64,000 nt of DNA from a virus. Under the pieces are notes generated by a model, which searched no databases, had not been told where the DNA came from, and saw only the letters and a program-made list of their open reading frames with translations. Each line of letters begins with the position of its first letter. Position 1 is the stretch's first letter. This document shows positions 95 to 14,909 of this stretch, one piece after another. Where the stretch lies: IMG/VR virus record IMGVR_UViG_3300045119_000180, positions 40,075-104,074 of that record; one strand, given 5' to 3'. The position numbers were made by a program, and so were the translations under genes.

Positions 95-670
95 ATGAAA
101 TGTCCACGGTGCGGCATTGGAATCGACGATGACAACGACGGTAATTGTGGTGTGTGCGCAAAGTGGAATGACGCCAAGTTACGCGAGATGACCGGACGCC
201 CGACTCCAGCAGACAAACTAGCAGCGGTGGTCAATAAGTGGCGCAGGAGTGCTCGCAAGGCGGTGAATATAGGCACTGCGGGTGCATACATGGAATGCTT
301 TGAAGATGTTGAACCCATCCTGGCTGAACTCCAGCGAGCGCAGGGGCGAGAATTGCTATACATGGCTGAGTCTGTTAGTCGATTGATTCACGCATGGGAT
401 TTGTTTCACTCACATCTACCCGATGGCGAATACAAAGGGCTAGGAGAAATGCGCATGGCGATTACCTACGCCAAGAAGCACCTGCTCTCCGCGCCCACGC
501 CAGCCGAGCAACAGGAAATAGTCAATGTAGGCGACAGGAAGTTTACGCGCACCCCTAATATCGTGGGAGATTTACAAGAAATTGTTTCAGATGGTTCCAC
601 GCCAGCCGTGCCATTACAAGTTAATTCTGCTGTGCCATTGCAAGTGAATTATGCTAAGGAGAAAGAATAG
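95..670 (+). CDS. Hypothetical phage protein with N-terminal CxxC/CxxC Zn ribbon
   Basis: 191-aa ORF, CPRC...CGVC; short C-terminal AVPLQVN duplication; coupled to the next ORF. Confidence 0.6.
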   Translation: MKCPRCGIGIDDDNDGNCGVCAKWNDAKLREMTGRPTPADKLAAVVNKWRRSARKAVNIGTAGAYMECFEDVEPILAELQRAQGRELLYMAESVSRLIHAWDLFHSHLPDGEYKGLGEMRMAITYAKKHLLSAPTPAEQQEIVNVGDRKFTRTPNIVGDLQEIVSDGSTPAVPLQVNSAVPLQVNYAKEKE

Positions 671-924
671 TGGAAGACGTTAAAGAATTATATCAAGAAC
701 GAATTGGAAAGATGACGAAGCGACAGTTCGCAGCCGAATTAAAACGTACAATTAAATCCGGCCAGCCGAATATAATGAATGGCGGCATCCGTGCGATTAT
801 CGGAAACATTCTTTTAAACGGCAATACAAACGGCAACGATCCTTATTTCAATAATACCGGCAAGCGTCGTGGAGCCGGCAAGGGTACAGGTGGATTGGTC
901 CTTGGTGGTGGAGGGCGCGGTTGA
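670..924 (+). CDS. Hypothetical protein
   Basis: 84-aa ORF with stop/start overlaps on both sides. Confidence 0.55.
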   Translation: MEDVKELYQERIGKMTKRQFAAELKRTIKSGQPNIMNGGIRAIIGNILLNGNTNGNDPYFNNTGKRRGAGKGTGGLVLGGGGRG

Positions 925-1292
925 AACTTCTGTTAGTGTTCTTTCTTTTGCCAACGGTCATATACGGACAGTCAAAGAAAGAATTACTAAAGGTGTATTC
1001 TGAGGCTAATAAAGATTACTTTGAAAATAAGTTGCCTCCGATCAGTATAGTATTTATAAAACATTTACAACAAAATGGTGATAGTCTTATGGCAACGACA
1101 TTCTGTAATGATGCCGGTTGCACAATTGATATAGACCCGGATAAAAACCCTAACACCCGGGTAGCGGTTATGACGCTTTATCATGAAACGTGTCACGTTT
1201 ATCTGTGGGATAAGCAAGCAGGTCACGGAGAAAAGTTCGAAAATTGTATGGTAAGATTGGCTGAATTGGGTGCTTTTGAGGGTTATTGGTGA
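921..1292 (+). CDS. SprT-like zinc metalloprotease with signal peptide
   Basis: HETCH (HExxH) followed by HGEKF; N-terminus MKLLLVFFLLPTVIYG-Q resembles a Sec signal. Confidence 0.7.
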   Translation: MKLLLVFFLLPTVIYGQSKKELLKVYSEANKDYFENKLPPISIVFIKHLQQNGDSLMATTFCNDAGCTIDIDPDKNPNTRVAVMTLYHETCHVYLWDKQAGHGEKFENCMVRLAELGAFEGYW

Positions 1293-1654
1293 TAGATAAG
1301 GTTCGGGCAAGAAGATTAAAAAATTTCTTTAATTTAACTGAAGAAGAGTGGGAACGAATTAGCCGCTATCAAAACGGCGTCTGCGCTATTTCTGGCAAGA
1401 AGCAGAAGAGTGGCAAGAGACTGGCTACAGATCACGATCATAAGAGCGGCATGATCCGCGGGTTGCTGACAGCAGAATCTAACAGACTACTCGGCAAAGT
1501 AGAGCGGCTGTGGACCGTCGATCAAATCAAATTGGTAATTGAATATCTTCTTCATCCGCCGGCCGTCCGCGCTCTAGGAAAGGAAGTATTTACATTTCCA
1601 GGCAGGCTTGGAACGAAAAGGCATAGAAAATGGCTATTAAAAAACAAAAAATAA
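1286..1654 (+). CDS. Endonuclease VII-family nuclease
   Basis: QNGVCAI...LATDHDHKSGMIRGLL...NRLLG EndoVII pattern. Confidence 0.8.
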   Translation: MVIDKVRARRLKNFFNLTEEEWERISRYQNGVCAISGKKQKSGKRLATDHDHKSGMIRGLLTAESNRLLGKVERLWTVDQIKLVIEYLLHPPAVRALGKEVFTFPGRLGTKRHRKWLLKNKK

Positions 1655-1759
1655 ACTTAAATAAACATCCGTTCAGTAAATCGTTAATCAAGTGGGATAA
1701 AGATTGGCGTGCTTTTTTGGCTAACAAAACCGAATTGAAGAAATCTAACTGATGAAAAC

Positions 1760-1795
1760 TAGTGCCTGTATCTAGCCGTCTAATAGAGGCCAAAT
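1760..1795 (+). promoter_or_regulatory. 36-bp conserved motif, copy 1 (putative phage promoter/operator)
   Basis: TAGTGCCTGTATCTAGCCGTCTAATAGAGGCCAAAT; 33/36 identical to 14241-14276; runs into the ATG at 1794. Confidence 0.7.
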
Positions 1796-2519
1796 GTCAA
1801 AGATCCTACTCATAGATATTGAAACATCGCCCTCGTTAGGCTGGGTCTGGTCAAAATGGGAGACTAACGTAATTGATTTCGAGCAAGATTGGTACATTTT
1901 GTCATTTGGTTATAAATGGCTAGGCGAAAAGAAAGTAACGGTTTTCGGGTTGGATGACTTTAACGGCTATAAAAAAGATCCAGAAAACGACAAAAATCTT
2001 ATAAATATGCTGTGGACGCTTTTGGACGAGGCGGATGTCATAATTGCTCATAACGGCGACCGATTTGATATTCCAAAAATCAACACTCGCTTCTTGACGC
2101 ATAAACTGAATCCGCCTAGTCCATACAAGACTATTGATACGCTGAAGATTGCCAGGTCAGTCTTTAAGTTCGATAGCAACAAGCTGGACGACCTAGGCAG
2201 GTATCTAAGTATCGGCCGTAAGCTTCCACATACTGGCTTTCATCTTTGGAAGGGCTGTATGTCCGGCGATAAAGCATCGTGGAAATTGATGAAGAAATAT
2301 AATAGTAATGATGTTGAATTACTCGAAAAAGTGTATTATATTATGCGAAGTTGGGCAAAGAATCATCCAGCTATTAATCAAGGTCTGTCGGAATGCTGTC
2401 CGAAGTGTCAGAGTCAAAAGGTTCAACGCCGCGGTTTTGATTACACACTTCAGCGTAAGAAGCAGCGGTACGTATGCACGGATTGTCATGGTTGGTTTCA
2501 AGGGCCGGCAACGAAATGA
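1794..2519 (+). CDS. RNase H-like (DnaQ-fold) 3'-5' exonuclease with C-terminal Zn ribbon
   Basis: IDIETS, AHNGDRFD, YNSNDV exonuclease motifs; CPKC...CTDC. Confidence 0.8.
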   Translation: MSKILLIDIETSPSLGWVWSKWETNVIDFEQDWYILSFGYKWLGEKKVTVFGLDDFNGYKKDPENDKNLINMLWTLLDEADVIIAHNGDRFDIPKINTRFLTHKLNPPSPYKTIDTLKIARSVFKFDSNKLDDLGRYLSIGRKLPHTGFHLWKGCMSGDKASWKLMKKYNSNDVELLEKVYYIMRSWAKNHPAINQGLSECCPKCQSQKVQRRGFDYTLQRKKQRYVCTDCHGWFQGPATK

Positions 2520-2743
2520 AAAAGTGGACTCGAATCAAAGATAAAAAGGAAAACAAATATTTAAAGGTGTATGAATCTGATCAAGGCGACTATAAAATTA
2601 TTTATCCGAAAGCACCGAAGTGGGCACAGAAAGTCGCATACGAGATTTGGAAAGACGCCAACAACGGCGTTCCGTATAAAAAAGGCGTCAAGACTATAGT
2701 TAAGGGGTTGTGGGCGAAAATGATTGCAGAGGCGGCAAAGTAA
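2516..2743 (+). CDS. Hypothetical protein
   Basis: ATGA overlap start at 2516 (MKKWTRIK), TAATG coupling at end. Confidence 0.55.
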   Translation: MKKWTRIKDKKENKYLKVYESDQGDYKIIYPKAPKWAQKVAYEIWKDANNGVPYKKGVKTIVKGLWAKMIAEAAK

Positions 2744-3168
2744 TGGCTTCATTTGATACAGGCGCAACGAGAAACGACGACATCGAGAAGTACGATTACG
2801 CGGGCTTTCTGTCCTCGTTGGTAATTGAGAGATACGCAAAGTATATGCACCTGCATCGCCGTCAGCACGATGGCACATTGAGAGCGTCAGACAACTGGAA
2901 ACTAGGAATCCCGATGTCCCGGTATATGCAAAGCCTTTGGAGGCATTTTTTCGACGTTTATAAGATCTATGAAGGCGGTACGGCGATCGATCCTGATAGC
3001 GGCGAGAAGGTAGATCTCGAGACGGCGTTGTGCGGTGTCCTATTCAATACTAACGGCCTTTTGCACGAGGCTATAAAGGGGCGTAAAACAACCGCTGCTA
3101 TAGATGAACTGTATGTGTCTGAGTTGAAGGCTAATATTGCTAAACAGCAAGGGCACTGCTCAAAGTGA
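2743..3168 (+). CDS. dATP/dGTP diphosphohydrolase-like protein (DUF5664 type)
   Basis: FDTGATR...DNWKLGIP...SLWRH pattern; start at TAATG 2743. Confidence 0.7.
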   Translation: MASFDTGATRNDDIEKYDYAGFLSSLVIERYAKYMHLHRRQHDGTLRASDNWKLGIPMSRYMQSLWRHFFDVYKIYEGGTAIDPDSGEKVDLETALCGVLFNTNGLLHEAIKGRKTTAAIDELYVSELKANIAKQQGHCSK

Positions 3169-3779
3169 AAACGACGATTTCATTCGACATCGACGGCGTA
3201 TTGGCAAGGTTTGACAAAGCCTTCGTCGCTGTCATTAACGACCTTTTCGATAAGAACCTTCCGGCAGATTACTCGCCGAATTCATGGGAATATTCGGAGG
3301 TGCTAACGCTTGATGAAATGGATCAGGCATTCAAGAAAATTAAAACAATACGGAATTTCTGGCACAAATTAGAACATTACGACAAAAATATAGATTCGCT
3401 ACAACGTTTCCTTCACGACGAATGTCATCATTACGATGTGTATTACATTACGTCGCGGATGGATACCGAAGGCGAATCAGCGCTTGGTCAGACCGCCGAG
3501 TGGCTTATAGATCGTGATCTATTGCTTTACAATACGTCGCTGTTGGTGGTTAGGGATCCTAAAGAAAAGAATCACATTCTTCGAGGGTTGAACGTCAAAT
3601 TCAGTATTGATGACTACCTTCCTACAGTGATTCAATCCGCGGCTATCCCTAATCACCAGGCGTATTTGCTAAATCGAAGTTGGAATAGAACCGGTCGACC
3701 GGATGATGTCCCAGTTGTAAATACGGTAAGAGAGTATCTCGAGGAGATTCGAGCTTCTAAGGGGGTTTTATCCCAGTAA
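3165..3779 (+). CDS. HAD-family 5'(3')-deoxyribonucleotidase
   Basis: FDIDGVL motif I, ITSR motif II, IDD motif IV, RSWNR tail. Confidence 0.8.
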   Translation: MKTTISFDIDGVLARFDKAFVAVINDLFDKNLPADYSPNSWEYSEVLTLDEMDQAFKKIKTIRNFWHKLEHYDKNIDSLQRFLHDECHHYDVYYITSRMDTEGESALGQTAEWLIDRDLLLYNTSLLVVRDPKEKNHILRGLNVKFSIDDYLPTVIQSAAIPNHQAYLLNRSWNRTGRPDDVPVVNTVREYLEEIRASKGVLSQ

Positions 3780-3781
3780 TT

Positions 3782-4489
3782 TTGAGTTTCGACACGGAGA
3801 CGACCGGCTTGGATTCTGAAAAGGATCATATTGTAGAGGTGGGCGCGATTTTGTACAGTACGGGCATGAAGCGCCAGCTTGAGGCCGCCAGCTGGCTTGT
3901 GAAGACTCCTAACACGATTACAGAAGAGATTACGGGCATTACTGGTTTAACAAACGCCGCCGTTGCTAAGTTTGGCTACGCAAGCGAGGATGCTTTAGAT
4001 TCGCTGTTGTGGATGGCTGAACGCGCGGATTATTGGATTGGCCAGAATGTCATCAGGTTTGACAAAAGGTTTCTAGAAGCGTGGTGCAAGCGGCACGGTA
4101 AAGAATTGAAAGAGAAGCTGTGGATTGATACGCGAACGGATCTGCCGAACACTGAAAGCAAGCATCTTGGTTATATGGCCGCGGATAAAGGGTTCCTGAA
4201 CCTCTTCCCGCACTCGGCATTGGCTGACTGCCAGACGGTATTGAAGCTGACTGAATTTTATAACTTCGATGAAATTCTAGAACGTGCTAAACAGCAAAGC
4301 GTAGTAGTTAGAAGCCATCAGAAGTTCGAAGACAACGAACTGGCAAAGAAGCTAAAGTTTCGTTGGGTTAGTACATTAAAGGTTTGGGCTAAGGACTGCA
4401 AAGAAGGCGATATTACCGATTTGCAAGCCGTAGCACCATTTAAAGTAACAATCGAAAAAGATATACCATTAGAAGCAATTTGGTATTAA
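3782..4489 (+). CDS. DnaQ/epsilon-like 3'-5' exonuclease
   Basis: FDTETTG, N..RFD, HSALAD (DEDDh); true start uncertain (TTG 3782 or ATT 3779). Confidence 0.85.
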   Translation: MSFDTETTGLDSEKDHIVEVGAILYSTGMKRQLEAASWLVKTPNTITEEITGITGLTNAAVAKFGYASEDALDSLLWMAERADYWIGQNVIRFDKRFLEAWCKRHGKELKEKLWIDTRTDLPNTESKHLGYMAADKGFLNLFPHSALADCQTVLKLTEFYNFDEILERAKQQSVVVRSHQKFEDNELAKKLKFRWVSTLKVWAKDCKEGDITDLQAVAPFKVTIEKDIPLEAIWY

Positions 4490-4500
4490 AAAAGGATAAA

Positions 4501-4698
4501 ATGACAAAAAAAGTAGATAATTTGCCGAAGACGATTCACGTTGTTATAAGTCAAAAAGGGACTAAAGATGAGTGTTTTTTGGCAGACACGAATCTTCAGT
4601 CTTTGGTTTCCTCTGCGGATGAAAGTCCGGCTGTTGTAGGGACATATCAACTGGTAAATCAAACAAAGTGGGAAGAATCCGTGCAGGAGGTACGATAG
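4501..4698 (+). CDS. Hypothetical protein
   Basis: AAGGA SD then ATG 4501; fills the gap in the operon. Confidence 0.55.
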   Translation: MTKKVDNLPKTIHVVISQKGTKDECFLADTNLQSLVSSADESPAVVGTYQLVNQTKWEESVQEVR

Positions 4699-5223
4699 AT
4701 GACGACATATAATACAAACACAGGTAAGGACTTTGAAGTTCCTAATACTGGCAACTTTCAAGGTGTAATCGTAGACGTATTTAAACGCGAGAAGGTTCAG
4801 ACAGAATATGGCGTTCAGGATAGAGTTACAATTGTTTGGTTTCTAAACGCCGTAGATTCAGACGGCCGGCCTTTCCGAGCGATTAGCGACGTTAACGCCA
4901 AGATTTCTGCTATCCCCGGCCGTAAGAAGTCGGGTTTTTATGAATTGCTTGAACAGATCTTCGGCGTGCCGCCAGGCGCTACTTTCGAGGACGAAACACT
5001 TATAGGGATTAGCCGCAACCTTTTCATTATGAAGGAAAAGGGCCGGAAGGATCCTACAAAGTGGTTCGGAAATATCAAGGGTATTACTCCTCTGACTCCT
5101 GACCAGACACCTATGACCGTTCCTGCCGGCTTTGTCCGCGCAAAGGATAAGCAACAGCCTGGACGATCGGTTTCGCCGGCTGTCATTCCACAAGCCGTAG
5201 CAGTGGGCGACGAACAGTTTTAG
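4699..5223 (+). CDS. Putative OB-fold single-stranded DNA-binding protein
   Basis: DFEVP..G.FQGVIVDV beta-rich core, flexible tail ending GDEQF; GGAGG SD; replication context. Confidence 0.55.
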   Translation: MTTYNTNTGKDFEVPNTGNFQGVIVDVFKREKVQTEYGVQDRVTIVWFLNAVDSDGRPFRAISDVNAKISAIPGRKKSGFYELLEQIFGVPPGATFEDETLIGISRNLFIMKEKGRKDPTKWFGNIKGITPLTPDQTPMTVPAGFVRAKDKQQPGRSVSPAVIPQAVAVGDEQF

Positions 5224-5308
5224 AGATTCCGAGTTCGAATCTCGGGCGTAGACGGCCTACGTAGTTCCAGGGAGCACTGGAACAGAGAGTTTGAATCTCT
5301 CAGCCGTT
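5223..5308 (+). ncRNA. tRNA-like four-hairpin structured element
   Basis: CCGAG-TTCGAAT-CTCGG, GCGTAG-ACGGC-CTACGT, GTTCCAG-GGAGCA-CTGGAAC, GAGAG-TTTGAAT-CTCTC; not a canonical cloverleaf order. Confidence 0.5.
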
Positions 5309-5313
5309 TTATC

Positions 5314-5335
5314 ACTTCCCAAGGAGTTCTTTTTT
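5314..5335 (+). terminator. Possible weak intrinsic terminator
   Basis: ACTTCC-CAA-GGAGT (bulged) followed by TCTTTTTT. Confidence 0.3.
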
Positions 5336-5350
5336 AACTGACTAAATTAA

Positions 5351-5965
5351 ATGGCTATTATAGGGTGTCATCTTCCTTTATCTGTCCGTATAAAACTACG
5401 GGCAATAAGAAAGGAAAGAGGTGAGTGTACTTGGTGCGGTGCTGAAGTAGAAGGAGATTTGAGAAATAGAGTAACCGGAAAGTTGAGAACGATGTGCCGT
5501 AAGTGTCTTCGTGATAATGCGGACAAGTTAGCTCGATATAGGCAAATTCGTCACTCTAAAGGTTTATGTGAAAGATGCGGTAAGAATCCTCCTAAGCCAA
5601 GCCTTAAAAACTGTATAGAGTGTACGGAAAAAGTGCGCTTCTATTCTAAAAAGCACCAAGACGCAACATTTTTTGAGAAACGAGCTAGAGTCGGCGGGAT
5701 GCAGTATTCGGTAGCCAGCGCAAAAATGTTGTGGTCTCTTTGGAAAGAGCAAAGAGGCCGCTGCGCTTTAACGGGCGAAAGATTGACAAGAACGAATAGT
5801 CAATTAGACCATATATTTCCAGTATCTAAAGGCGGTTCAAACGAGCGTTCAAATTTACGTTGGCTTTTAGCAGAAGTAAATCAGGCTAAAAGAGCTTTAA
5901 CAGACGATGAGTTCTTATTGTTGTGCAAACGCGTAGTCGATTGGGCGGAAAGAAATCGGAGTTAA
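5351..5965 (+). CDS. HNH endonuclease with N-terminal Zn-ribbon repeats
   Basis: Four CxxC pairs, then QRGRCALTG...LDHIFPVSKGGSN..SNL...VNQAK. Confidence 0.85.
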   Translation: MAIIGCHLPLSVRIKLRAIRKERGECTWCGAEVEGDLRNRVTGKLRTMCRKCLRDNADKLARYRQIRHSKGLCERCGKNPPKPSLKNCIECTEKVRFYSKKHQDATFFEKRARVGGMQYSVASAKMLWSLWKEQRGRCALTGERLTRTNSQLDHIFPVSKGGSNERSNLRWLLAEVNQAKRALTDDEFLLLCKRVVDWAERNRS

Positions 5966-5966
5966 C

Positions 5967-8000
5967 TTGACCTTTCTCGAGATAGCCAAACCTTTAACAG
6001 CCCGCGGGATTCCAGTTATACCGCTACGACCAAGAACCAAAATCGCGTTACTAGACGATTGGCAAAACCGAGCGACTACCGACGAATCTCAAATTCAGTT
6101 GTGGCACGAAGAGTACCCGGAGGCTAATGGTGCGGTGGTAGCTATCGCTGTTAGTACCGGATTCTGGTTTTTGGAGGTGGATAGCCATGAAGTCGTCCCG
6201 CGTATTGAAAAAGAAACAGGCCAGAAGTTCCCGGAAACCTTTGCGGTCAGATCGTCACCGGGAAAAAGCCATTTCTACTTCAGACAGTCAACAGCTAGTA
6301 TGCGAATGGGCAACATTGCTCAGACTAAAGAGAGCGGTTGGTCCGCAAGGGTGGACAGATCTTATTGCGTTAGCCCGGGAAGCGTCCACCCGATTACAGG
6401 ACTTTGCTACGAAGTTAAAAACTCAGCAGAAATCGTCGAAGCGCCAGAATGGCTAATCGAGTGGCTTAAAAACCAACGCATCGAAAAGAAATCCGTTCAG
6501 CCAGACGAAGATCAGCATTTTTATTCCGGTAGCCGTAACGTCCATCTAGCCAGCCGCGCTGGTAAGATGCGCAACGCAGGCATGAGCCAAACGGAGATTG
6601 AGAATACGCTGTTGCGTATGAACCAGGATCTTTGTCATCCGCCGCTAGATGAAAACGAAGTTCGCGTAATTGCTGGAAGTATCTCGAGATACGACATTCC
6701 ACGTGAAACGGTCCTGTTACATGGCGGCGTTCCGGTCAACGGTAATGGAGGCGTGGCCGTACAGACGGCGGTAGAGGCGCCGCAGCATCAAAGTGCCATT
6801 ATTCCTTATCCGGTCTTCCCGGATTGGGTTATGTCCGGAACGTCGCTTTACGAAGGTTTTATCAAACCTATTTGCGATATTAATAGCCGGTATCCCAGCT
6901 TTATGTTCATGCCGGCTGTCGCGCTGATGCTGAACTACCTTGGTACACGCATTACGATTGAGTACAAGCCAAATAAGCCTAATATCTTTCTCGTTCTGAT
7001 CGGCAGGCGTGGCAGAACAATGAAGTCGGCCAGCGTAGAAGACGCTTTGCATTACTTCGAACAAGCCGGATTGCTAGCGCATGGCGGTCCTGGAATAGCC
7101 AATGCAGGCGGCAAAATGCTCGTCTGGACGCCCGGTTCACCTGAAGGCTTTGGTTTAGAGATGGCCAGGACGAACTGTAAGAACGGTGTTATCTATTACG
7201 ATGAATTGTCAACGTTGACCAGCAAGGCCGGTATTGAGAATAGCGGACTAGCTAGCCGACTATTACAGCTTTACGAATCCGCAAAGTTCCAGAACGTCGT
7301 TAAGTCAAAGAAGGAAACGTTTGGTTTAGAGCCTAAGACGTATTGCGCGTGTCTTCTAGCCTGTTCAACGGATAAGAACTTTCAAAAGGATTGGGCGAAG
7401 ATGTCCGCGGGCAGTTCCGGACTGGACGATCGAATGTTCTTTCTTCTGCAGCCTGAAACGCTCAAGGAACTCACTCCGTACAAGGCTGTTTGTGTTCAGG
7501 AAGGCGCCCTCGAGACTCGAAGGTTGATTGACAAGGCTATTGACCAACAGCACTTTAAATTCTCAGATGAGATGGTTCTGCAGGCGGCTAGTAAGCGGCT
7601 AGGCAACCGAGCCTTTATCCGTGTAGAGAAGCTGGCTATTTACTTCGCTGTCGATCTAGGTCGAGATGAACTAGATTCAGATTGTTGCGAACGCGCACTT
7701 GCGGTTTGCGAGTACGAACAGTCTGTCAAGAAATATCTAAAAACGTTTGAAGGCGTTACGAAAGAGAGTTTGCTACAACAAGAAATTATGTTTAGGGTGA
7801 GGCAAAGCCCAGAAGGATTAACTGTTAGAGATATTAATAGGGTTCTACATCCCAAACGCTACGGCACCAGCCTATGGAAGACAGCTTATTATGGCCTTCT
7901 TAACATGGGCTGGTTGGCCGAGATCGGAGATGGAACTAAATCGTCGCCACGCAGACTGATATCTTTATTGGCCGCCGAAGACGATGAGGATGAAGATTAA
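5967..8000 (+). CDS. Bifunctional primase-polymerase with PriCT-1 and C-terminal helicase-like domain
   Basis: IPVIPL..TK, HFYF, PGSVHP.TG..Y prim-pol motifs; GSRN..L...AG...CHPPL..EV PriCT-1; degenerate P-loop GRRGRTMKS and YYDE. Confidence 0.85.
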   Translation: MTFLEIAKPLTARGIPVIPLRPRTKIALLDDWQNRATTDESQIQLWHEEYPEANGAVVAIAVSTGFWFLEVDSHEVVPRIEKETGQKFPETFAVRSSPGKSHFYFRQSTASMRMGNIAQTKESGWSARVDRSYCVSPGSVHPITGLCYEVKNSAEIVEAPEWLIEWLKNQRIEKKSVQPDEDQHFYSGSRNVHLASRAGKMRNAGMSQTEIENTLLRMNQDLCHPPLDENEVRVIAGSISRYDIPRETVLLHGGVPVNGNGGVAVQTAVEAPQHQSAIIPYPVFPDWVMSGTSLYEGFIKPICDINSRYPSFMFMPAVALMLNYLGTRITIEYKPNKPNIFLVLIGRRGRTMKSASVEDALHYFEQAGLLAHGGPGIANAGGKMLVWTPGSPEGFGLEMARTNCKNGVIYYDELSTLTSKAGIENSGLASRLLQLYESAKFQNVVKSKKETFGLEPKTYCACLLACSTDKNFQKDWAKMSAGSSGLDDRMFFLLQPETLKELTPYKAVCVQEGALETRRLIDKAIDQQHFKFSDEMVLQAASKRLGNRAFIRVEKLAIYFAVDLGRDELDSDCCERALAVCEYEQSVKKYLKTFEGVTKESLLQQEIMFRVRQSPEGLTVRDINRVLHPKRYGTSLWKTAYYGLLNMGWLAEIGDGTKSSPRRLISLLAAEDDEDED

Positions 8001-8510
8001 TTGAAGCCGGAGATTAAGAGAAATAAATGGGGTGTTCGTATTTGTGAGCACAACAGATTACAATATCGATGCAAAGAATGTGACGGAAGTCTAATTTGTG
8101 AGCATAATAGACGACGAAATGATTGCATAGAATGCGGCGGTGCTTCAATCTGTGAGCACAAAAGACATCGAAATCGTTGTAAAGAGTGTCGCCCTTTAGG
8201 TTGGGCTAAAGTTAAATTGAAACAGATGCGTCAACGTTCTCGAAAAGGTGGATACAAAATCCCTGATATAACACCAGAGAGAATTTTGTTGCTTAGCACA
8301 AAAAAGAACTGCCTTATGTGTCATTTGCCTTTTACGTTAAACAACAACCCGTCTTGTCTTCATCATAATCACGAGACCGGTGAAGTTTACGGGTTCGCTC
8401 ATAGGGATTGTAATCGAATGGAGGGTTTTTTCGGTAAATTGACTACGGCTCAGCAGGTTCGTTTTTTACAGACTCAATTCCCGGATGTCGTCAAGGCACT
8501 TAGAAAATGA
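8001..8510 (+). CDS. EndoVII-like homing endonuclease with CEH zinc-finger repeats
   Basis: Three ICEH-x6-CxxC repeats, then CLMC...HHNHETGEVYG.AH..CN. Confidence 0.7.
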   Translation: MKPEIKRNKWGVRICEHNRLQYRCKECDGSLICEHNRRRNDCIECGGASICEHKRHRNRCKECRPLGWAKVKLKQMRQRSRKGGYKIPDITPERILLLSTKKNCLMCHLPFTLNNNPSCLHHNHETGEVYGFAHRDCNRMEGFFGKLTTAQQVRFLQTQFPDVVKALRK

Positions 8511-9697
8511 AAAGATTGGTCTTCGTCGATTTTGAAACCCGATCGTTACGGGAATTGCGCGGTCAAACCAGCGTAGGTCTTTCAAACTACACGATGGATG
8601 CCTCAACGGAGGCTATAATTTTAGCGTGGGCACTTGATAACGAAGAGCCAAACGTATATTTTCCGCTGTGGCAAGTTATGCCGGAGGAGCTTAAAAAGGC
8701 TTTGGAAGATTCGTCTGTAGACATCGTAGCTTATAATAGCGCCTTTGAAAGAAATGTATTCCTTTATGTATTGGGAATTGATCTGCCAGTAAGTCGCTTT
8801 CAAGATCCCCAACCATCTGCTAGATATCTTAGTCTTCCTGGAAGCTTGGAAGATGTAGGGGGCATTTTAAAGCTACCCGATGAACTTAAAAAGGACAAAG
8901 AAGGTAAACGTCTTTTAGACGTGTTCACAAAACCGACGAAAAAGAAAGGTAAAGAGAGTTATTTCCGCGATTGGGATTCGGATCCCGAAGATTGGCAACG
9001 TTTTGTTGAATACGCAAAGCAGGATATCAGAGCGGAAAGAGAGATCTTGAAGCGCTTGGAAGCCCTCGGCACTTATCCATTACTGCCTAGGGAAAGAGAC
9101 ATCTGGGAGCTTGACCAGAAGATCAATGGCCGTGGTATTCCCGTCGATCGGCCGTTTGTTACGAGTATGTTCAATCTTGGTGAGCGGGCCAAGAAGGACG
9201 CTATTGGCGAACTGAAGCGACTTACTGGTTTGGAGAACGCTAATTCGAATAGCCAGATGCTTCAATGGGCGAAGAAGGAAGGATATAGCAAACAGAGTCT
9301 TCGTAAAGAGACGGTCCTGGCCGAATTGAAGTTCAATACTGAATTGACGCCTCTGTGCCGACAGGTATTAGAGTTACGGAAAGCTGCGTCTTCTACTTCA
9401 TACAAGAAAATGGCAGCTCTTCTCCGCTTGTCCAGTTCGGACCAGCGGTTGCGCAATCAATTCCTTTATCTAGGCAGTCCGCGGTGTGGCCGGTGGAGTG
9501 GCAACGGCTTTCAGTTTCATAATATGGCCCGACCGACACAGGATTTTGAGGACCTTGAAACGGTAGATGAAGCCCGAAGATTGGTTAGTGCCGAAGACTA
9601 TCAAGGTGTCATTGCGAAGTTCGGAAAGCACCCGAAGGACTACGGCGCTGTATTAGGGGTCGTTAAGAGCTGTATAAGGACTGCATTTTGTTCATAG
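8507..9697 (+). CDS. Family A DNA polymerase, N-terminal part (3'-5' exonuclease, thumb)
   Basis: VDFETRS, AYNSAFER, YAKQDI, GRWSG..FQFHNMAR, IRTAF; stops just before motif A. Confidence 0.85.
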   Translation: MKRLVFVDFETRSLRELRGQTSVGLSNYTMDASTEAIILAWALDNEEPNVYFPLWQVMPEELKKALEDSSVDIVAYNSAFERNVFLYVLGIDLPVSRFQDPQPSARYLSLPGSLEDVGGILKLPDELKKDKEGKRLLDVFTKPTKKKGKESYFRDWDSDPEDWQRFVEYAKQDIRAEREILKRLEALGTYPLLPRERDIWELDQKINGRGIPVDRPFVTSMFNLGERAKKDAIGELKRLTGLENANSNSQMLQWAKKEGYSKQSLRKETVLAELKFNTELTPLCRQVLELRKAASSTSYKKMAALLRLSSSDQRLRNQFLYLGSPRCGRWSGNGFQFHNMARPTQDFEDLETVDEARRLVSAEDYQGVIAKFGKHPKDYGAVLGVVKSCIRTAFCS

Positions 9698-10629
9698 CCG
9701 CAGACTTGAACGCCATAGAGACTCGGGTAGCTGCTTGGTTGAGCGGCTGTCAGTCGCTATTACAAGTGTTTTACGATAATCAAGACCCGTATATATCGTT
9801 TGCAAATCGTATGACGGGTATTATGTACGACAAGTTGGCCAAAGATCTTAAAAGCGACAATCCGGCCGTAAAAGCCGCGGCTAAAGGTCATCGCCAAGTC
9901 GCTAAACCAGGCGTTTTAGGCTGCGTTTACCGTCTAGGTCCGGGCCAGATAAGCACCAATAAGCACGGCGATCAGGTCAAAACAGGCTTGTGGGGCTATT
10001 CAGAGGCTATGGGCGTTTCAATGACGCAGGATAAGGCCCAGGAGGTAGTTCAGGTCTTCCGCCAGTCATATCCGGAGATTTGCGAGATGTGGTATAGCCT
10101 TGAGGAAGCCGTTTCAGACGTTCTGAAGGGCCAACGGACAAAACGCGAATTAGGGCCTGATGGCTGCATCAAGATCGATAAGATACCGAATGGTGATACC
10201 GAGATCCTACGTATCCAGTTGCCCAGTGGGCGCCGATTGCACTATCTAGAGGCTCAGATCAAGCCTACCAAGATGCCTTGGACCAAACTGAACGACCAGG
10301 GCGAAGAGGAAGAAGTTTATAAGCCTACGTTGAATTACGCCTCAGTTGACCAGGAAACGAAGCAATGGGGTTATACTACCAGTCATGGTGGTAAGATATT
10401 TGAGAACATTGTTCAAGGTACGGCTCGAGACGTCCTGGCAGAGCAAATGCTAAGATTCGAAGAGTGGCATTTGAATATCGTTGCTCACGTTCATGACGAA
10501 ATCATCGTAGAGTGCGATACGGACGAACTGAAGTTGGCTGAAGAGATAATGTCACGGAGTATTGATTGGGCTCCTGGTTTGCCGTTGGCCGCTGAAGGAT
10601 GGCGAGGAAATTACTACAGAAAGGGTTGA
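9688..10629 (+). CDS. Family A DNA polymerase, C-terminal catalytic part
   Basis: ADLNAIETR (motif A), RQVAKPGVLGCVY (motif B), ENIVQGTARD, HVHDE (motif C), Y.K terminus; AAGGA SD 7 nt before TTG. Confidence 0.85.
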   Translation: MFIAADLNAIETRVAAWLSGCQSLLQVFYDNQDPYISFANRMTGIMYDKLAKDLKSDNPAVKAAAKGHRQVAKPGVLGCVYRLGPGQISTNKHGDQVKTGLWGYSEAMGVSMTQDKAQEVVQVFRQSYPEICEMWYSLEEAVSDVLKGQRTKRELGPDGCIKIDKIPNGDTEILRIQLPSGRRLHYLEAQIKPTKMPWTKLNDQGEEEEVYKPTLNYASVDQETKQWGYTTSHGGKIFENIVQGTARDVLAEQMLRFEEWHLNIVAHVHDEIIVECDTDELKLAEEIMSRSIDWAPGLPLAAEGWRGNYYRKG

Positions 10630-10654
10630 CAATTAGTTTACTTTAAGGTAGGCT
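10626..10654 (+). promoter_or_regulatory. Sigma70-like promoter, probably leaderless
   Basis: TTGACA-N17-TAGGCT, 6 nt, then ATG 10661; no SD. Confidence 0.5.
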
Positions 10655-10660
10655 TTTAAA

Positions 10661-10843
10661 ATGAAGAAGAAATTCGCTAAATATCTTATTCCAAAGCGCG
10701 CTAAAATACTATTAAGCGCCAATCGGCTAATTGATTCGTTTAATGAAAAAGAGCAAACATGGGAGACAGACGATACAGACGGTCATCCGCACGAGTTTAC
10801 GGCTATTTATAAACTCGTTCGTGTCAAGAAGGTCAAAAAGTGA
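10661..10843 (+). CDS. Hypothetical protein
   Basis: 60-aa ORF after the promoter, GTGA overlap with the next gene. Confidence 0.55.
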   Translation: MKKKFAKYLIPKRAKILLSANRLIDSFNEKEQTWETDDTDGHPHEFTAIYKLVRVKKVKK

Positions 10844-11904
10844 AAGCAAAATTCATACCATTAGGCGATTTAAGCAATCTTTCAGAAGAGCAGAAGCTTG
10901 ACTATTATAATAACGTCTGTGAACACTTTGAAGTGCCGGCAGAACTGAATTTATTGTATTTCGATTGGTTCGATTCGGGCGACGGAGCCAGAAAGTACAT
11001 CCTTTACGCCGCGAAGGGCTTTTCGGACTTTATGCGCGGCAAACTGGGCATTGAAACGGACAGTTTGGAAGAGTCGGTTTCAGATGGCGTAGTACGGTAT
11101 AAGTGTAAGGGCCACGATAAAGATGGCCGTCACGAAATTGCTATCGGCGCAAGTACGATCGCAGGACTTACAGGTAAGAAGCTCGAGGATTCTTTCGCGA
11201 AAGCACAGACGAAAGCAACCAGGCGTATGACGCTGCAATTTGTAGGCGCCGGCATTCTAGACGAATCTGAAAAGTCAGTTACAAGCCTTTCTGTTGACAT
11301 TTCTTCCGCAGGTCTTCCTCTGGCCCAACTGCCCACAGTAGAGATCAACGCTGCTAAGGGTAAGTTGGTTGAGATGGCTAATGAGGCTACTAATCGGGCG
11401 GTTGATATGCTTCATGATCAGCATCCTCTGGCTTTTGAAGCCGTAAAGGTTTCTGGCGAACTGGTTGCTGCGGTTAACGGTTTGGAAACGGAGCTGCGTC
11501 GACGTCCAGGACCAAAGCAGTCTGACAATTTGGTAGTTGACACCAATTTGGGTACAGTTGACACCAATTTGGGTACAGTTGACACCAATTTGGGTACACC
11601 TGCCGAATTGACTTTTAAGCAATGGCTAAGTCGCCTTACGAATGAAATCCTGCCACCTCCTCCAAGCGGCCAATCCGGGACGTTTACGACTTATGGCGGT
11701 ATGAAGCCGTCGTTAGGCGTTGGCGGCGTATCAATGAAAGTCGTTTCGTACGCCAGGAAGGTCTTTCCGGGCAAGGAAATAAAAGAGTTTACTCTAGACG
11801 ATCAAAACGCGTTCAAAAAAGGCTTCGATAATGTATTAAAAGAGCAAGGTGCGGTCGGTTTGGTTAAACATATAAACGATTCGTTAGGTGTAAAGGAGGG
11901 CTGA
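10840..11904 (+). CDS. Putative single-strand annealing recombinase (RecT/Rad52-like superfamily)
   Basis: LSEEQK..YY..VC, LYA, AKAQTKATRR.TL...G.GILDESE pattern; near a PD-(D/E)XK nuclease gene. Confidence 0.55.
   Translation: MKAKFIPLGDLSNLSEEQKLDYYNNVCEHFEVPAELNLLYFDWFDSGDGARKYILYAAKGFSDFMRGKLGIETDSLEESVSDGVVRYKCKGHDKDGRHEIAIGASTIAGLTGKKLEDSFAKAQTKATRRMTLQFVGAGILDESEKSVTSLSVDISSAGLPLAQLPTVEINAAKGKLVEMANEATNRAVDMLHDQHPLAFEAVKVSGELVAAVNGLETELRRRPGPKQSDNLVVDTNLGTVDTNLGTVDTNLGTPAELTFKQWLSRLTNEILPPPPSGQSGTFTTYGGMKPSLGVGGVSMKVVSYARKVFPGKEIKEFTLDDQNAFKKGFDNVLKEQGAVGLVKHINDSLGVKEG
11536..11598 (+). repeat. Perfect 3 x 21-bp in-frame tandem repeat
   Basis: GTTGACACCAATTTGGGTACA x3, encoding VDTNLGT x3. 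Confidence 0.95.
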
Positions 11905-12086
11905 TGGATAGCGGCTTGATTCGTTGTAGTAATTGCGAAGAAGATCTTCCAGAAAGCGATTTTAGCGACTTTCAGCTAGGAAAGGCGGATAGCATTTGTG
12001 ACGTCTGCCTAGACGAAATGGACGAAATAGACGAAGATCTAGAAGATGAAGCTGCGGAGGAATCGGAAGACGATTTTACCGACTGA
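11904..12086 (+). CDS. Small Zn-finger protein with acidic tail
   Basis: CSNC...CDVC then D/E-rich tail; GGAGG SD; TGATG coupling on both sides. Confidence 0.65.
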   Translation: MDSGLIRCSNCEEDLPESDFSDFQLGKADSICDVCLDEMDEIDEDLEDEAAEESEDDFTD

Positions 12087-13844: not shown

Positions 13845-14243
13845 GTGAAGAATTGCCGCAGCCGTGATACCCAAGGCGAACTCCGTAACAGCTTTGACAG
13901 CAATTCGCCGTTTATGACCGGCCATTCGATTATGGTCGTGCGACGACATAAGCGCCGTATTCCAGAATGGGCTAAAGACGACAAACAACTACGACAATTA
14001 ATTTCGAGATCTTTTCCTTACCGTAAAAGTAATCCGGACCAAAATCTCAGAGCTGGCCGTTGGGCTCGATTCATTTATCTTTATTTCAGGATGACTAAAA
14101 CTAGAAGCGAGATAGTAGGCGAAATGTCATTGACGTACCACGCTGTTGATAGTCTTTGCCGGGCGATCTACCGTGCGGCCGCCGGGCTTAAGGCTAACGG
14201 CAATGGTAAGGCTGGCGGACGCCCAGGACGCCCTAAGAAATAG
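13845..14243 (+). CDS. Hypothetical basic protein, possible HTH DNA-binding domain
   Basis: IYLYFRMTKTRSEIVGEMSLTYHAVDSL resembles a sigma region-4/HTH; AT-hook-like GRPGRPKK end. Confidence 0.5.
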   Translation: MKNCRSRDTQGELRNSFDSNSPFMTGHSIMVVRRHKRRIPEWAKDDKQLRQLISRSFPYRKSNPDQNLRAGRWARFIYLYFRMTKTRSEIVGEMSLTYHAVDSLCRAIYRAAAGLKANGNGKAGGRPGRPKK

Positions 14244-14276
14244 TGCCTGCATCCAGCCGTCTAATAGAGGCTAAAT
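14241..14276 (+). promoter_or_regulatory. 36-bp conserved motif, copy 2
   Basis: TAGTGCCTGCATCCAGCCGTCTAATAGAGGCTAAAT; 33/36 identical to 1760-1795. Confidence 0.7.
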
Positions 14277-14825: not shown

Positions 14826-14899
14826 TGGCCTCTAGCATAACCGGTAATTGCGTCGTCCTGTTAAGACGAAGGATCTCTGTTCGAATCAGAGGGGGCCAG
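14826..14899 (+). tRNA. tRNA-Asn(GTT), CCA not encoded
   Basis: Acceptor TGGCCTC/GGGGCCA, D arm with GG, anticodon arm TCGTC-CTGTTAA-GACGA, T arm CTCTG-TTCGAAT-CAGAG, discriminator G. Confidence 0.9.
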
Positions 14900-14909
14900 C
14901 TGAGGAGTT

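Follow-up and report, generated by a model that had tools for sequence, protein, structure and literature searches.

A four-hairpin spacer with T-arm-type loops between the ssb-like and HNH genes of a soil phage: a candidate structured boundary in a replication operon

RESULTS

The ssb-HNH spacer and its four hairpins

We analyzed a window of 64,000 nucleotides (bases 40075-104074 of the IMG/VR phage record IMGVR_UViG_3300045119_000180) with a focus on a hairpin element that lies in the spacer between an ssb-like gene and an HNH endonuclease gene. The record represents a complete, uncultured soil phage genome of 104,074 bp with 127-bp direct terminal repeats; positions given below are those of the window unless they are called genome positions. 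From ~95 to 12,000 every gene is on the + strand and the spacing is tight, and the replication operon in this region has the order NT5C-like gene, RNase T-like exonuclease, 72-aa open reading frame, 174-aa ssb-like gene, spacer, HNH, Prim-Pol/PriCT, endonuclease VII, and split family A polymerase.

The spacer contains four adjacent perfect hairpins, H1 to H4 (Table 1), which occupy 5229-5301 at distances of 0-1 nt and have all of their stem pairs intact (23/23). An earlier note on this DNA, made from the letters alone, had picked out these hairpins and had read them, in the order T, acceptor, D, anticodon, as a tRNA cloverleaf opened at the variable loop. The hairpins are all present, and so is the perfect T arm that it named, since H1 agrees with T arms of real tRNAs at 17/17 positions; H4 agrees with such T arms at 16/17. 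What the note called a D-like arm corresponds to the outer 4 bp of H3 (GTTC/GAAC, after TA). H1 and H4 have a 13-nt core in common, with their two outer pairs differing in a compensated fashion (CC/GG vs GA/TC), and this 13-mer, GAGTTYGAATCTC, occurs twice in the 104 kb, both times in this element. The H1 and H4 loops are complementary to each other over 6 nt with one G.U pair, the hairpins being 39 nt apart, which is an automatic consequence of TTCGAA being palindromic. Just four hairpin pairs with complementary loops were found in the genome, two of which are HNH leaders, and shuffled sequences gave none. Besides this element and the known HNH leaders, one pair is left, at genome 95185 on the minus strand (window position ~55111; GTAGCTT / AGCTAT, 6 nt, 47 nt apart).

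Two further complementarities proposed in the earlier note were also found, i.e., that of the H2 loop ACGGC (5252-5256) with GCCGT (5303-5307) and that of AGAGATTC (5222-5229) with GAATCTCT (5293-5300), but the latter, offered as an alternative fold, carries almost no weight in the fold ensemble.

Table 1 Features of the ssb-HNH spacer and its flanking genes
Feature	Position	Strand	Description	Basis
ssb-like gene	4699-5223	+	174 aa, acidic tail ending DEQF	Stop TAG 5221-5223
Closing helix, 5' strand	5215-5226	+	Predicted; CAGUU..AGAGA, overlaps the ssb stop codon	Minimum free energy fold of 5215-5345
H1	5229-5245	+	T-arm-type hairpin, CCGAG-TTCGAAT-CTCGG	Stem 5229-5233 / 5241-5245
H2	5246-5262	+	Closed acceptor-like 6-bp hairpin, GCGTAG-ACGGC-CTACGT, one G.T pair	Stem 5246-5251 / 5257-5262
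Alternative unpermuted fold	5250-5310	+	Predicted; AGACGGC/GCCGUUU stem enclosing H3 and H4, into U run 5307-5310	RNA folding
H3	5264-5283	+	D-like arm, 7-bp hairpin, GTTCCAG-GGAGCA-CTGGAAC	Stem 5264-5270 / 5277-5283
H4	5285-5301	+	Second T-arm-type hairpin, GAGAG-TTTGAAT-CTCTC, also readable as a UGA anticodon arm	Stem 5285-5289 / 5297-5301
Small hairpin	5314-5335	+	ACUUC-CCAA-GGAGU with orphan Shine-Dalgarno sequence AAGGAG (5321-5326), then UCUUUUUU	Sequence and RNA folding
Closing helix, 3' strand	5328-5340	+	Predicted; UCUUU..AACUG, 11-23 nt before the HNH start	Minimum free energy fold of 5215-5345
HNH endonuclease gene	5351-5965	+	204 aa, without a Shine-Dalgarno sequence	Pfam HNH_5, HNH_4; PHROG HNH or endonuclease VII families
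Prim-Pol/PriCT primase gene	5967-8000	+	TTG start 1 nt past the HNH stop	Pfam/PHROG searches

Predicted folding of the spacer RNA

The + strand RNA of 5215-5345 was predicted to fold at -42.3 kcal/mol (z = -3.0), and none of the shuffled sequences folded as well (0/200). The - strand of the same region gave -36.4 kcal/mol (z = -2.5), and the + strand fold makes use of G.U pairs. H3 had a pair probability of ~1.0 in every sequence context tried and H4 had 0.87-0.94 across contexts, whereas the values of H1 (0.04-0.98) and H2 (0.02-0.7) depended on the flanks. The competitor of H1 is a pairing of GAGAUUC (5223-5229) with GAAUCUC (5237-5243). That of H2 is a 7-bp stem, AGACGGC (5250-5256) with GCCGUUU (5303-5309), which closes the alternative, unpermuted fold listed in Table 1 and had a probability of up to 0.9 for 5224-5312 and of ~0.55 for 5215-5345. 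In shape, this alternative fold may be read as a three-way tRNA-like structure, as a branched terminator-like structure, or as a minihelix of acceptor and T arm.

In the minimum free energy fold of 5215-5345, the two flanks of the spacer were predicted to pair as a closing helix (pair probabilities, 0.56-0.99), which would enclose the whole domain and extend over the stretch from -23 to -11 relative to the HNH start. A second, weak hairpin (ACUUC/GGAGU) followed by U6 was also seen; both this hairpin and the AGACGGC/GCCGUUU stem running into 5307-5310, i.e., the two terminator-like stems of the spacer, appear in RNAfold ensembles only. The predicted dominant fold is not the tRNA fold, and the cloverleaf is, as far as these models go, one of several near-equal folds.

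Resemblance to tRNA

With the arms in their native order, ARAGORN found no tRNA at the element, and its tmRNA search was also negative; the only tRNA that it found in the native sequence is a tRNA-Asn at 14826-14900, which is the single tRNA of the phage. Infernal against Rfam, the check that the earlier note had suggested, returned no tRNA, YrlA, or related match: cmscan gave nothing at the gathering threshold and no tRNA-related family at E <= 10, even locally, and the E-value search of the element returned two chance-level matches and nothing else. Once the element was circularly permuted (rejoined or dimerized), ARAGORN called a tRNA-Ser(UGA) on the + strand and a tRNA-Arg(UCG) on the - strand, with scores of up to 101.4 and 107.4, respectively. 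When 273 kb from this phage and its relatives were scanned densely, the element ranked first at 107.4, with a background of up to 106.7, ~11 other sites at >= 100, and real tRNAs at 100.6-122. Taken alone, the score of the element is weak evidence. The opened-cloverleaf reading stands as to the arm order, which is real and is accepted by ARAGORN after de-permutation, but background sites score nearly as high.

When the loops were shuffled and the stems kept, the calling score was reached by 1/400 sequences on the + strand and 1/400 on the - strand; when the stems were randomized and the loops kept, it was reached by 267/400 and 0/400, respectively. Because loop shuffling abolishes the call and stem randomizing mostly does not, the resemblance resides in the + strand loop sequences, namely, the T loop, the GG loop, and the Y-U-NNN-R-N loop. 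The tRNA-Arg reading of the - strand, which contains A53-U61 and is antisense to the operon, is fragile.

As in a permuted tRNA gene, the element has the order T, acceptor 3', acceptor 5', D, anticodon. However, 1 nt lies between its acceptor strands in the tRNA register (5 nt as a hairpin loop), one acceptor pair is a C.A mismatch, CCA is absent, there are no flanking tRNAs, and one extra nucleotide separates the T stem from the acceptor strand in both readings. Since the T loop also fits the anticodon-loop pattern, four distinct tRNA arms are not established, and what the sequence supports is a pair of T-arm-type hairpins with two other hairpins of fitting size between them.

Searches for copies and for a source tRNA

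Searches for close relatives were empty, both by blastn among phages and in viral_contigs with the SSB and primase proteins, the exact DNA pattern, and the SSB alignment; the HNH protein had one distant match in viral_contigs, at 27% identity. The nearest SSB homologues were P0002 and P0003, with 57-61% identity, and P0004 on a 51-kb contig, and a metagenome scan yielded SSB relatives at 32-39% only, none with the element. A covariance model built on the single sequence found no second copy in the phage genome and none in G001-G009, its other matches being weak and lying at tRNA junctions in tRNA-rich loci. When viral and genome collections were searched for pairs of T-loop cores spaced by 38-58 nt, the matches were duplicated tRNA 3' ends and did not have the architecture of the element; viral and bacterial contigs commonly contain such duplicated ends, at distances of 55-75 nt. 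None of 185,579 species genomes contained the exact string of T arm and acceptor, none of 926 distinct tRNAs qualified as a source by having a matching acceptor, and the regions upstream of the HNH homologues in L007-L015 had no T-arm hairpins.

Two side observations came from these searches. A second soil metagenome, compared over window positions 3000-9000, contains a mosaic relative of the phage, in which 4873-5023, 5232-5382, 5764-6140, 6223-6414, and 8510-8722 are identical and 3220-3551 and 7017-7183 differ by 8-16%, a pattern that suggests recent recombination among strains. In bacterial contigs from Patescibacteria, Saccharibacteria, Prevotellaceae, and Rickettsiales (L145, L146, L151, L155, L157, L158, L162-L164, L167, L170, L172, and L173), a truncated tRNA-like unit lies within a few bases downstream of a tRNA-Ser(GGA/UGA). 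It has no D or anticodon arm but a single hairpin and then a T arm, placed between an acceptor-like strand and an acceptor 3' strand. This unit may represent a small tRNA-like RNA or result from an att-type duplication.

The ssb-primase junction in related phages

The 174-aa protein had no match in Pfam and PHROG searches. Its relatives have a C-terminus of D/E-x-IPF or F, an SSB-type acidic tip, and its AlphaFold model (pLDDT 70) had as top matches the OB-fold single-stranded DNA binders PrgE, PriB, PRD1 P12, and SSBs; on these two grounds, the label ssb-like seems reasonable. The HNH protein has ~25 homologues with 50-61% identity. Its ATG at 5351 has no Shine-Dalgarno (SD) sequence and is directly preceded by an in-frame TAA (5348-5350), while the orphan SD AAGGAG at 5321-5326 has no start codon in reach, the nearest being the same ATG, 24 nt away.

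Distant phages with an ssb-primase neighborhood were found through protein alignments. Three related phages share this neighborhood, and G001 shares the HNH gene as well. Every relative found has some structure after ssb at this position: a perfect sigma70 promoter (TTGACA/TTGACT-17-TATAAT) in G001 (105 kb) and G005 (111 kb); a 114-nt spacer in L142, with a branched stem closed by 7 bp (GGUGGGG/CCCCACC) and a U-rich tail, the stem being followed by ACUUUCUU and the primase ribosome-binding site (RBS); a canonical terminator in L006; and a hairpin in L004 and L005. MAFFT aligned H3 (TTCCAG-GGAGCA-CTGGAA) on the G005 hairpin (TTCAG-GAGAGA-CTGAA), and likewise on that of G001. It also matched CACTTCCCAAGGAG from this phage to CACTTTCTTATGAGG from L142, and the orphan SD region to the primase RBS region of L142. 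Considering this alignment, the missing start codon after AAGGAG, and the SD-less HNH gene, AAGGAG is probably the old SD of the primase gene, and the comparison suggests that the HNH cassette (5328-5965) was inserted between that SD and its start. The structure thus appears to belong to the ssb-primase junction, and its link to the HNH gene looks secondary.

The promoter regions of G001 (L008:2903-2982) and G005 (L144:2381-2452) have a structure of their own. In the hairpin formed by the 17-bp promoter spacer, the arms covary (CCACG/CGTGG vs TTCAG/CTGAA) and the loop, GGAGAG, is conserved. The -35 is overlapped by another hairpin with covariation (AAGCC/GGCTT vs AAGTC/GACTT), and the SD of the following gene has a potential anti-SD partner upstream (CUUCCUCAAA or CACCU), the helix of the two closing the region. 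By this arrangement, read-through RNA would be masked and promoter-initiated RNA would not, the same logic as in T4 homing-endonuclease genes. These two phages also differ from ours in their tRNA content, with 31 (G001) and 32 (G005) tRNA genes vs 1 by ARAGORN. Their tRNA arrays are near the genome ends (L018-L023 and L174-L179, respectively), and a "tmRNA" called by ARAGORN in G001 overlaps two Lys tRNAs and is probably an artifact.

In the phage analyzed here, a scan for sigma70-like sites found none in the spacer able to serve HNH. A 36-bp motif at 1760-1795 and 14241-14276, the latter copy heading the tRNA-Asn region, reads as an extracytoplasmic function (ECF)-type promoter (GAAAAC or GAAAT, 17 nt, CGTCTAA), and it does not occur in the ssb-HNH spacer. 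The element itself was rejected as a version of this motif in a by-eye comparison, because its spacing is wrong (GGAAC-21-CGTT, vs 17 in the motif).

DISCUSSION

A structured spacer in the replication operon

The reading that we favor, tentatively and as something short of probable, is that of a lineage-specific, cis-acting structured RNA spacer, i.e., a boundary and insulator in an early replication operon, which was assembled from T-arm-type hairpins. We do not think that a working, decoding tRNA arises from the element. The spacer would be cotranscribed with ssb, since the genes are co-oriented and no local promoter was found, and its RNA would fold into a compact multihairpin domain in which H3 and H4 are constant and H1 and H2 alternate with two other pairings. 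The ssb message may thereby gain a nuclease-resistant and partly terminating 3' boundary, with partial termination occurring at the AGACGGC/GCCGUUU stem and its U run and then at the weak hairpin with U6. The SD-less, selfish HNH gene and the downstream primase gene would be insulated and expressed at a lower level, and the flanks may pair (CAGUU/AACUG and AGAGA/UCUUU) over the region ahead of the HNH start. The two T-arm-type hairpins are probably tRNA-gene debris and the source of the tRNA look, a plausible origin because the phage seems to have lost a tRNA array, and the resemblance may make the domain a substrate of the tRNA enzymes RNase P, TruB, and TrmA.

Several observations are in keeping with such a spacer. 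The + strand fold is more stable than that of the - strand and beats all shuffles; H1 and H4 match real T arms, and the + strand loops carry the tRNA call; some structure comes after ssb in every relative found; H3 and the SD region align with relatives; and the HNH gene is SD-less. Other observations weigh against it. A plain hairpin would suffice as a boundary, and the spacer reading leaves unexplained both the two perfectly paired T-arm consensus hairpins and the cloverleaf-like geometry. The closing helix is lost in the 5200-5360 context, and H1 and H2 also vanish in some contexts. A consensus terminator scan flagged neither of the terminator-like features, neither of which is canonical. 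No homologue of the element was found in the DNA searched, the contigs of the nearest SSB and of the ~25 HNH homologues lying outside the comparison, and the sole other copy is that of the second soil run, which carries 5232-5382 with 0 differences, so that covariation, another check put forward in the earlier note, is uninformative. A search of sequencing runs listed no RNA run that contains the stretch. Lastly, the homology of H3 and the SD region to the relatives rests on short alignments.

Alternative explanations

The strongest competitor, although we consider it unlikely, is that the element is functionless debris, either two T arms or a tandem-duplicated tRNA trimmed to a 3' half and a 5' half, which was stranded in the spacer when the tRNA array was lost and the HNH cassette was inserted. 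The absence of conservation in any relative, the 31-32 tRNAs of G001 and G005 vs the single one here, and the commonness of closely spaced duplicated tRNA 3' ends would all fit debris, as would an ARAGORN score marginally above background and the lack of a match to the Rfam tRNA model at E <= 10. A decaying pseudogene, however, would hardly keep 23/23 stem pairs, and the compensated difference between H1 and H4 and a fold significantly more stable than those of shuffled sequences also speak against debris. The earlier note had named a decayed ordinary tRNA as the outcome that would overturn its reading; H1 and H4 are indeed T-arm sequences, but no source tRNA was found, either among the 926 distinct tRNAs or in the 185,579 species genomes.

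A quite unlikely alternative is tRNA-like punctuation, in which RNase P, with or without the 3' tRNA-processing enzymes, recognizes a stack of T arm and acceptor and cleaves the polycistronic transcript, either within the loop of H2 or, if the unpermuted fold forms, at 5249/5250, and splits a stable ssb message from an unstable HNH-primase message. A precedent exists in Mycobacterium smegmatis, where RNase P cleaves, both in vitro and in vivo, the closed 7-bp acceptor of a YrlA RNA with the order T, acceptor stem, D, and CCA is then added (PMC4201824). Both folds of the element place a T-arm-type hairpin beside a 6-7-bp stem, and the tRNA-like loop sequences are on the transcribed strand. On the other hand, H2 has 6 pairs and a 5-nt loop, with a C.A top pair and strands 1 nt apart in the tRNA register, and no cleavage was seen of YrlA RNAs with acceptor stems of less than seven base pairs (PMC4201824). 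The extra nucleotide between T stem and acceptor strand and the lack of RCCA also argue against a cut.

An element that acts at the DNA level, with the hairpins or cruciforms serving as a replication origin, as a single-strand initiation site, or, for the HNH homing cassette, as a site of recognition or a boundary, is improbable. It would agree with the position between ssb and primase, with the four perfect inverted repeats and the repeated 13-mer, and with the HNH cassette boundary that the L142 comparison places ~20 nt downstream. However, the motif is not reiterated elsewhere in the genome, and the G.U pairs and the energy difference between the strands favor a + strand RNA. An origin inferred from GC skew was rejected; the cumulative skew follows gene orientation and turns at genome 34 kb and 74 kb, at gene-orientation switches, rather than at 45.3 kb, where the element is located; GANTC clustering was likewise discarded as a signal, being at an ordinary level here.

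Still more improbable is a trans-acting tRNA mimic, set free from the mRNA or transcribed from a promoter of its own, which would be a decoy or sponge for an anticodon nuclease, a modification enzyme, or a Ro-independent partner. In its favor are an arm order shared with the tRNA-like module of YrlA, a perfect T arm, GG in the D-like loop, and an H4 loop that fits Y-U-NNN-R-N. Against these stand the lack of a promoter in the spacer scan, the single orphan locus, and a tRNA fold that is not the dominant prediction. TROVE/Ro60 had no match in the complete 104-kb phage genome, whereas control genomes matched (the host genome being outside this search); the YrlA Ro-binding motif GNCGAAN0-1G is absent from 5200-5350; and neither YrlA at E <= 10 nor any other Rfam family was matched. 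The functions that the earlier note had proposed, namely, a decoy for anticodon nucleases, a processing signal, or an HNH-associated RNA, found no direct support, with no Rfam match, no Ro60, and no RtcB or Rnl2-type (PF09414) RNA ligase in the phage genome, other ligase families, T4 Rnl1-type included, being unsearched.

A true circularly permuted gene maturing to a decoding tRNA-Ser(UGA), or to a tRNA-Arg(UCG) from the - strand, is hardly credible despite the ARAGORN calls on both strands, given a gap of 1-5 nt between the acceptor strands, their C.A mismatch, the absence of CCA, a D arm with a 7-bp stem, a 6-nt loop, and no A14, the long variable arm that a Ser tRNA should carry, the lack of RtcB or Rnl2-type ligase, flanking tRNAs, and conservation, and a - strand reading that contains A53-U61, was called in 0/400 sequences with randomized stems, and is antisense to the operon.

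What the element may mean

We consider it distinctly unlikely that the element functions as a tRNA mimic with the arm order of YrlA but independently of Ro60, be it as RNase P-cut punctuation that uncouples ssb from HNH-primase or as a released decoy. If it did, a bacteriophage mRNA would carry a tRNA-like RNA module within it, something of which we found no description; use of the tRNA shape would make it a phage case of tRNA-like punctuation or mimicry inside a protein-coding operon and a second, Ro-independent context for the YrlA type of arm order. A spacer made from tRNA debris would instead show that phages recycle tRNA fragments and that the ssb-primase junction has repeatedly been rebuilt, as a terminator, a promoter, hairpins, or an HNH cassette. 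As it is a single orphan locus, its present value is that of a cheap, well-defined test object, not that of a discovery.

Comparison with known systems

The comparison with YrlA made in the earlier note is apt. The tRNA-like module of YrlA consists of stem-loops in the order (V), T, closed acceptor stem-loop, D (PMC4201824, Chen et al. 2014; Rfam RF02553), and the order T, closed acceptor, D recurs in H1, H2, and H3. The element also has the consensus T loop, GG in the D-like loop, and RNA ends that enter through another arm position. It lacks the features that define the YrlA family, namely, a Ro60 neighbor, the GNCGAAN0-1G motif, and a covariance-model match. It further differs from YrlA in that its fourth hairpin follows D, at the anticodon position, and does not precede T, at the V position, and in that it is an orphan embedded in an mRNA spacer and not a stand-alone gene.

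Circularly permuted tRNA genes, in which the 3' part (T arm, acceptor 3') likewise lies upstream of the 5' part (acceptor 5', D, anticodon), are known in Cyanidioschyzon merolae, some green algae, and Thermofilum pendens, and our literature search found no paper on such genes in bacteriophages. Unlike them, the element has a 1-5-nt linker, no bulge-helix-bulge, no context of splicing endonuclease or of RtcB/Rnl2-type ligase, an imperfect acceptor, an abnormal D arm, and no conservation. Two-piece tmRNA genes similarly place the T arm and the acceptor 3' strand ahead of the acceptor 5' strand, but a permuted tmRNA was rejected, as the element has no tag reading frame, no G3.U70, and no CCA.

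Homing-endonuclease genes of the T4 I-TevI type have RBS-masking leaders, and the element resembles these in lying upstream of a free-standing HNH gene with flanks able to pair over the ribosome landing site. Two HNH leaders of this phage are of a kissing-loop type (genome 32941 and 30718), with two hairpins 4-9 nt apart, fully complementary 7-nt loops, an SD inside hairpin 2, and an end 3-4 nt before the ATG. The element was rejected as a leader of this type, since only 6 nt of its loops pair, 39 nt lie between the two hairpins, and the distance from the second of them to the ATG is 50 nt. Finally, in comparison with the intrinsic terminators and 3' stabilizer hairpins that follow phage ssb genes, its stem is branched, its second hairpin is weak, and the consensus scan detected neither, but it is found in the same place and, in the predicted folds, has both a stem leading into a U run and a second hairpin with U6.

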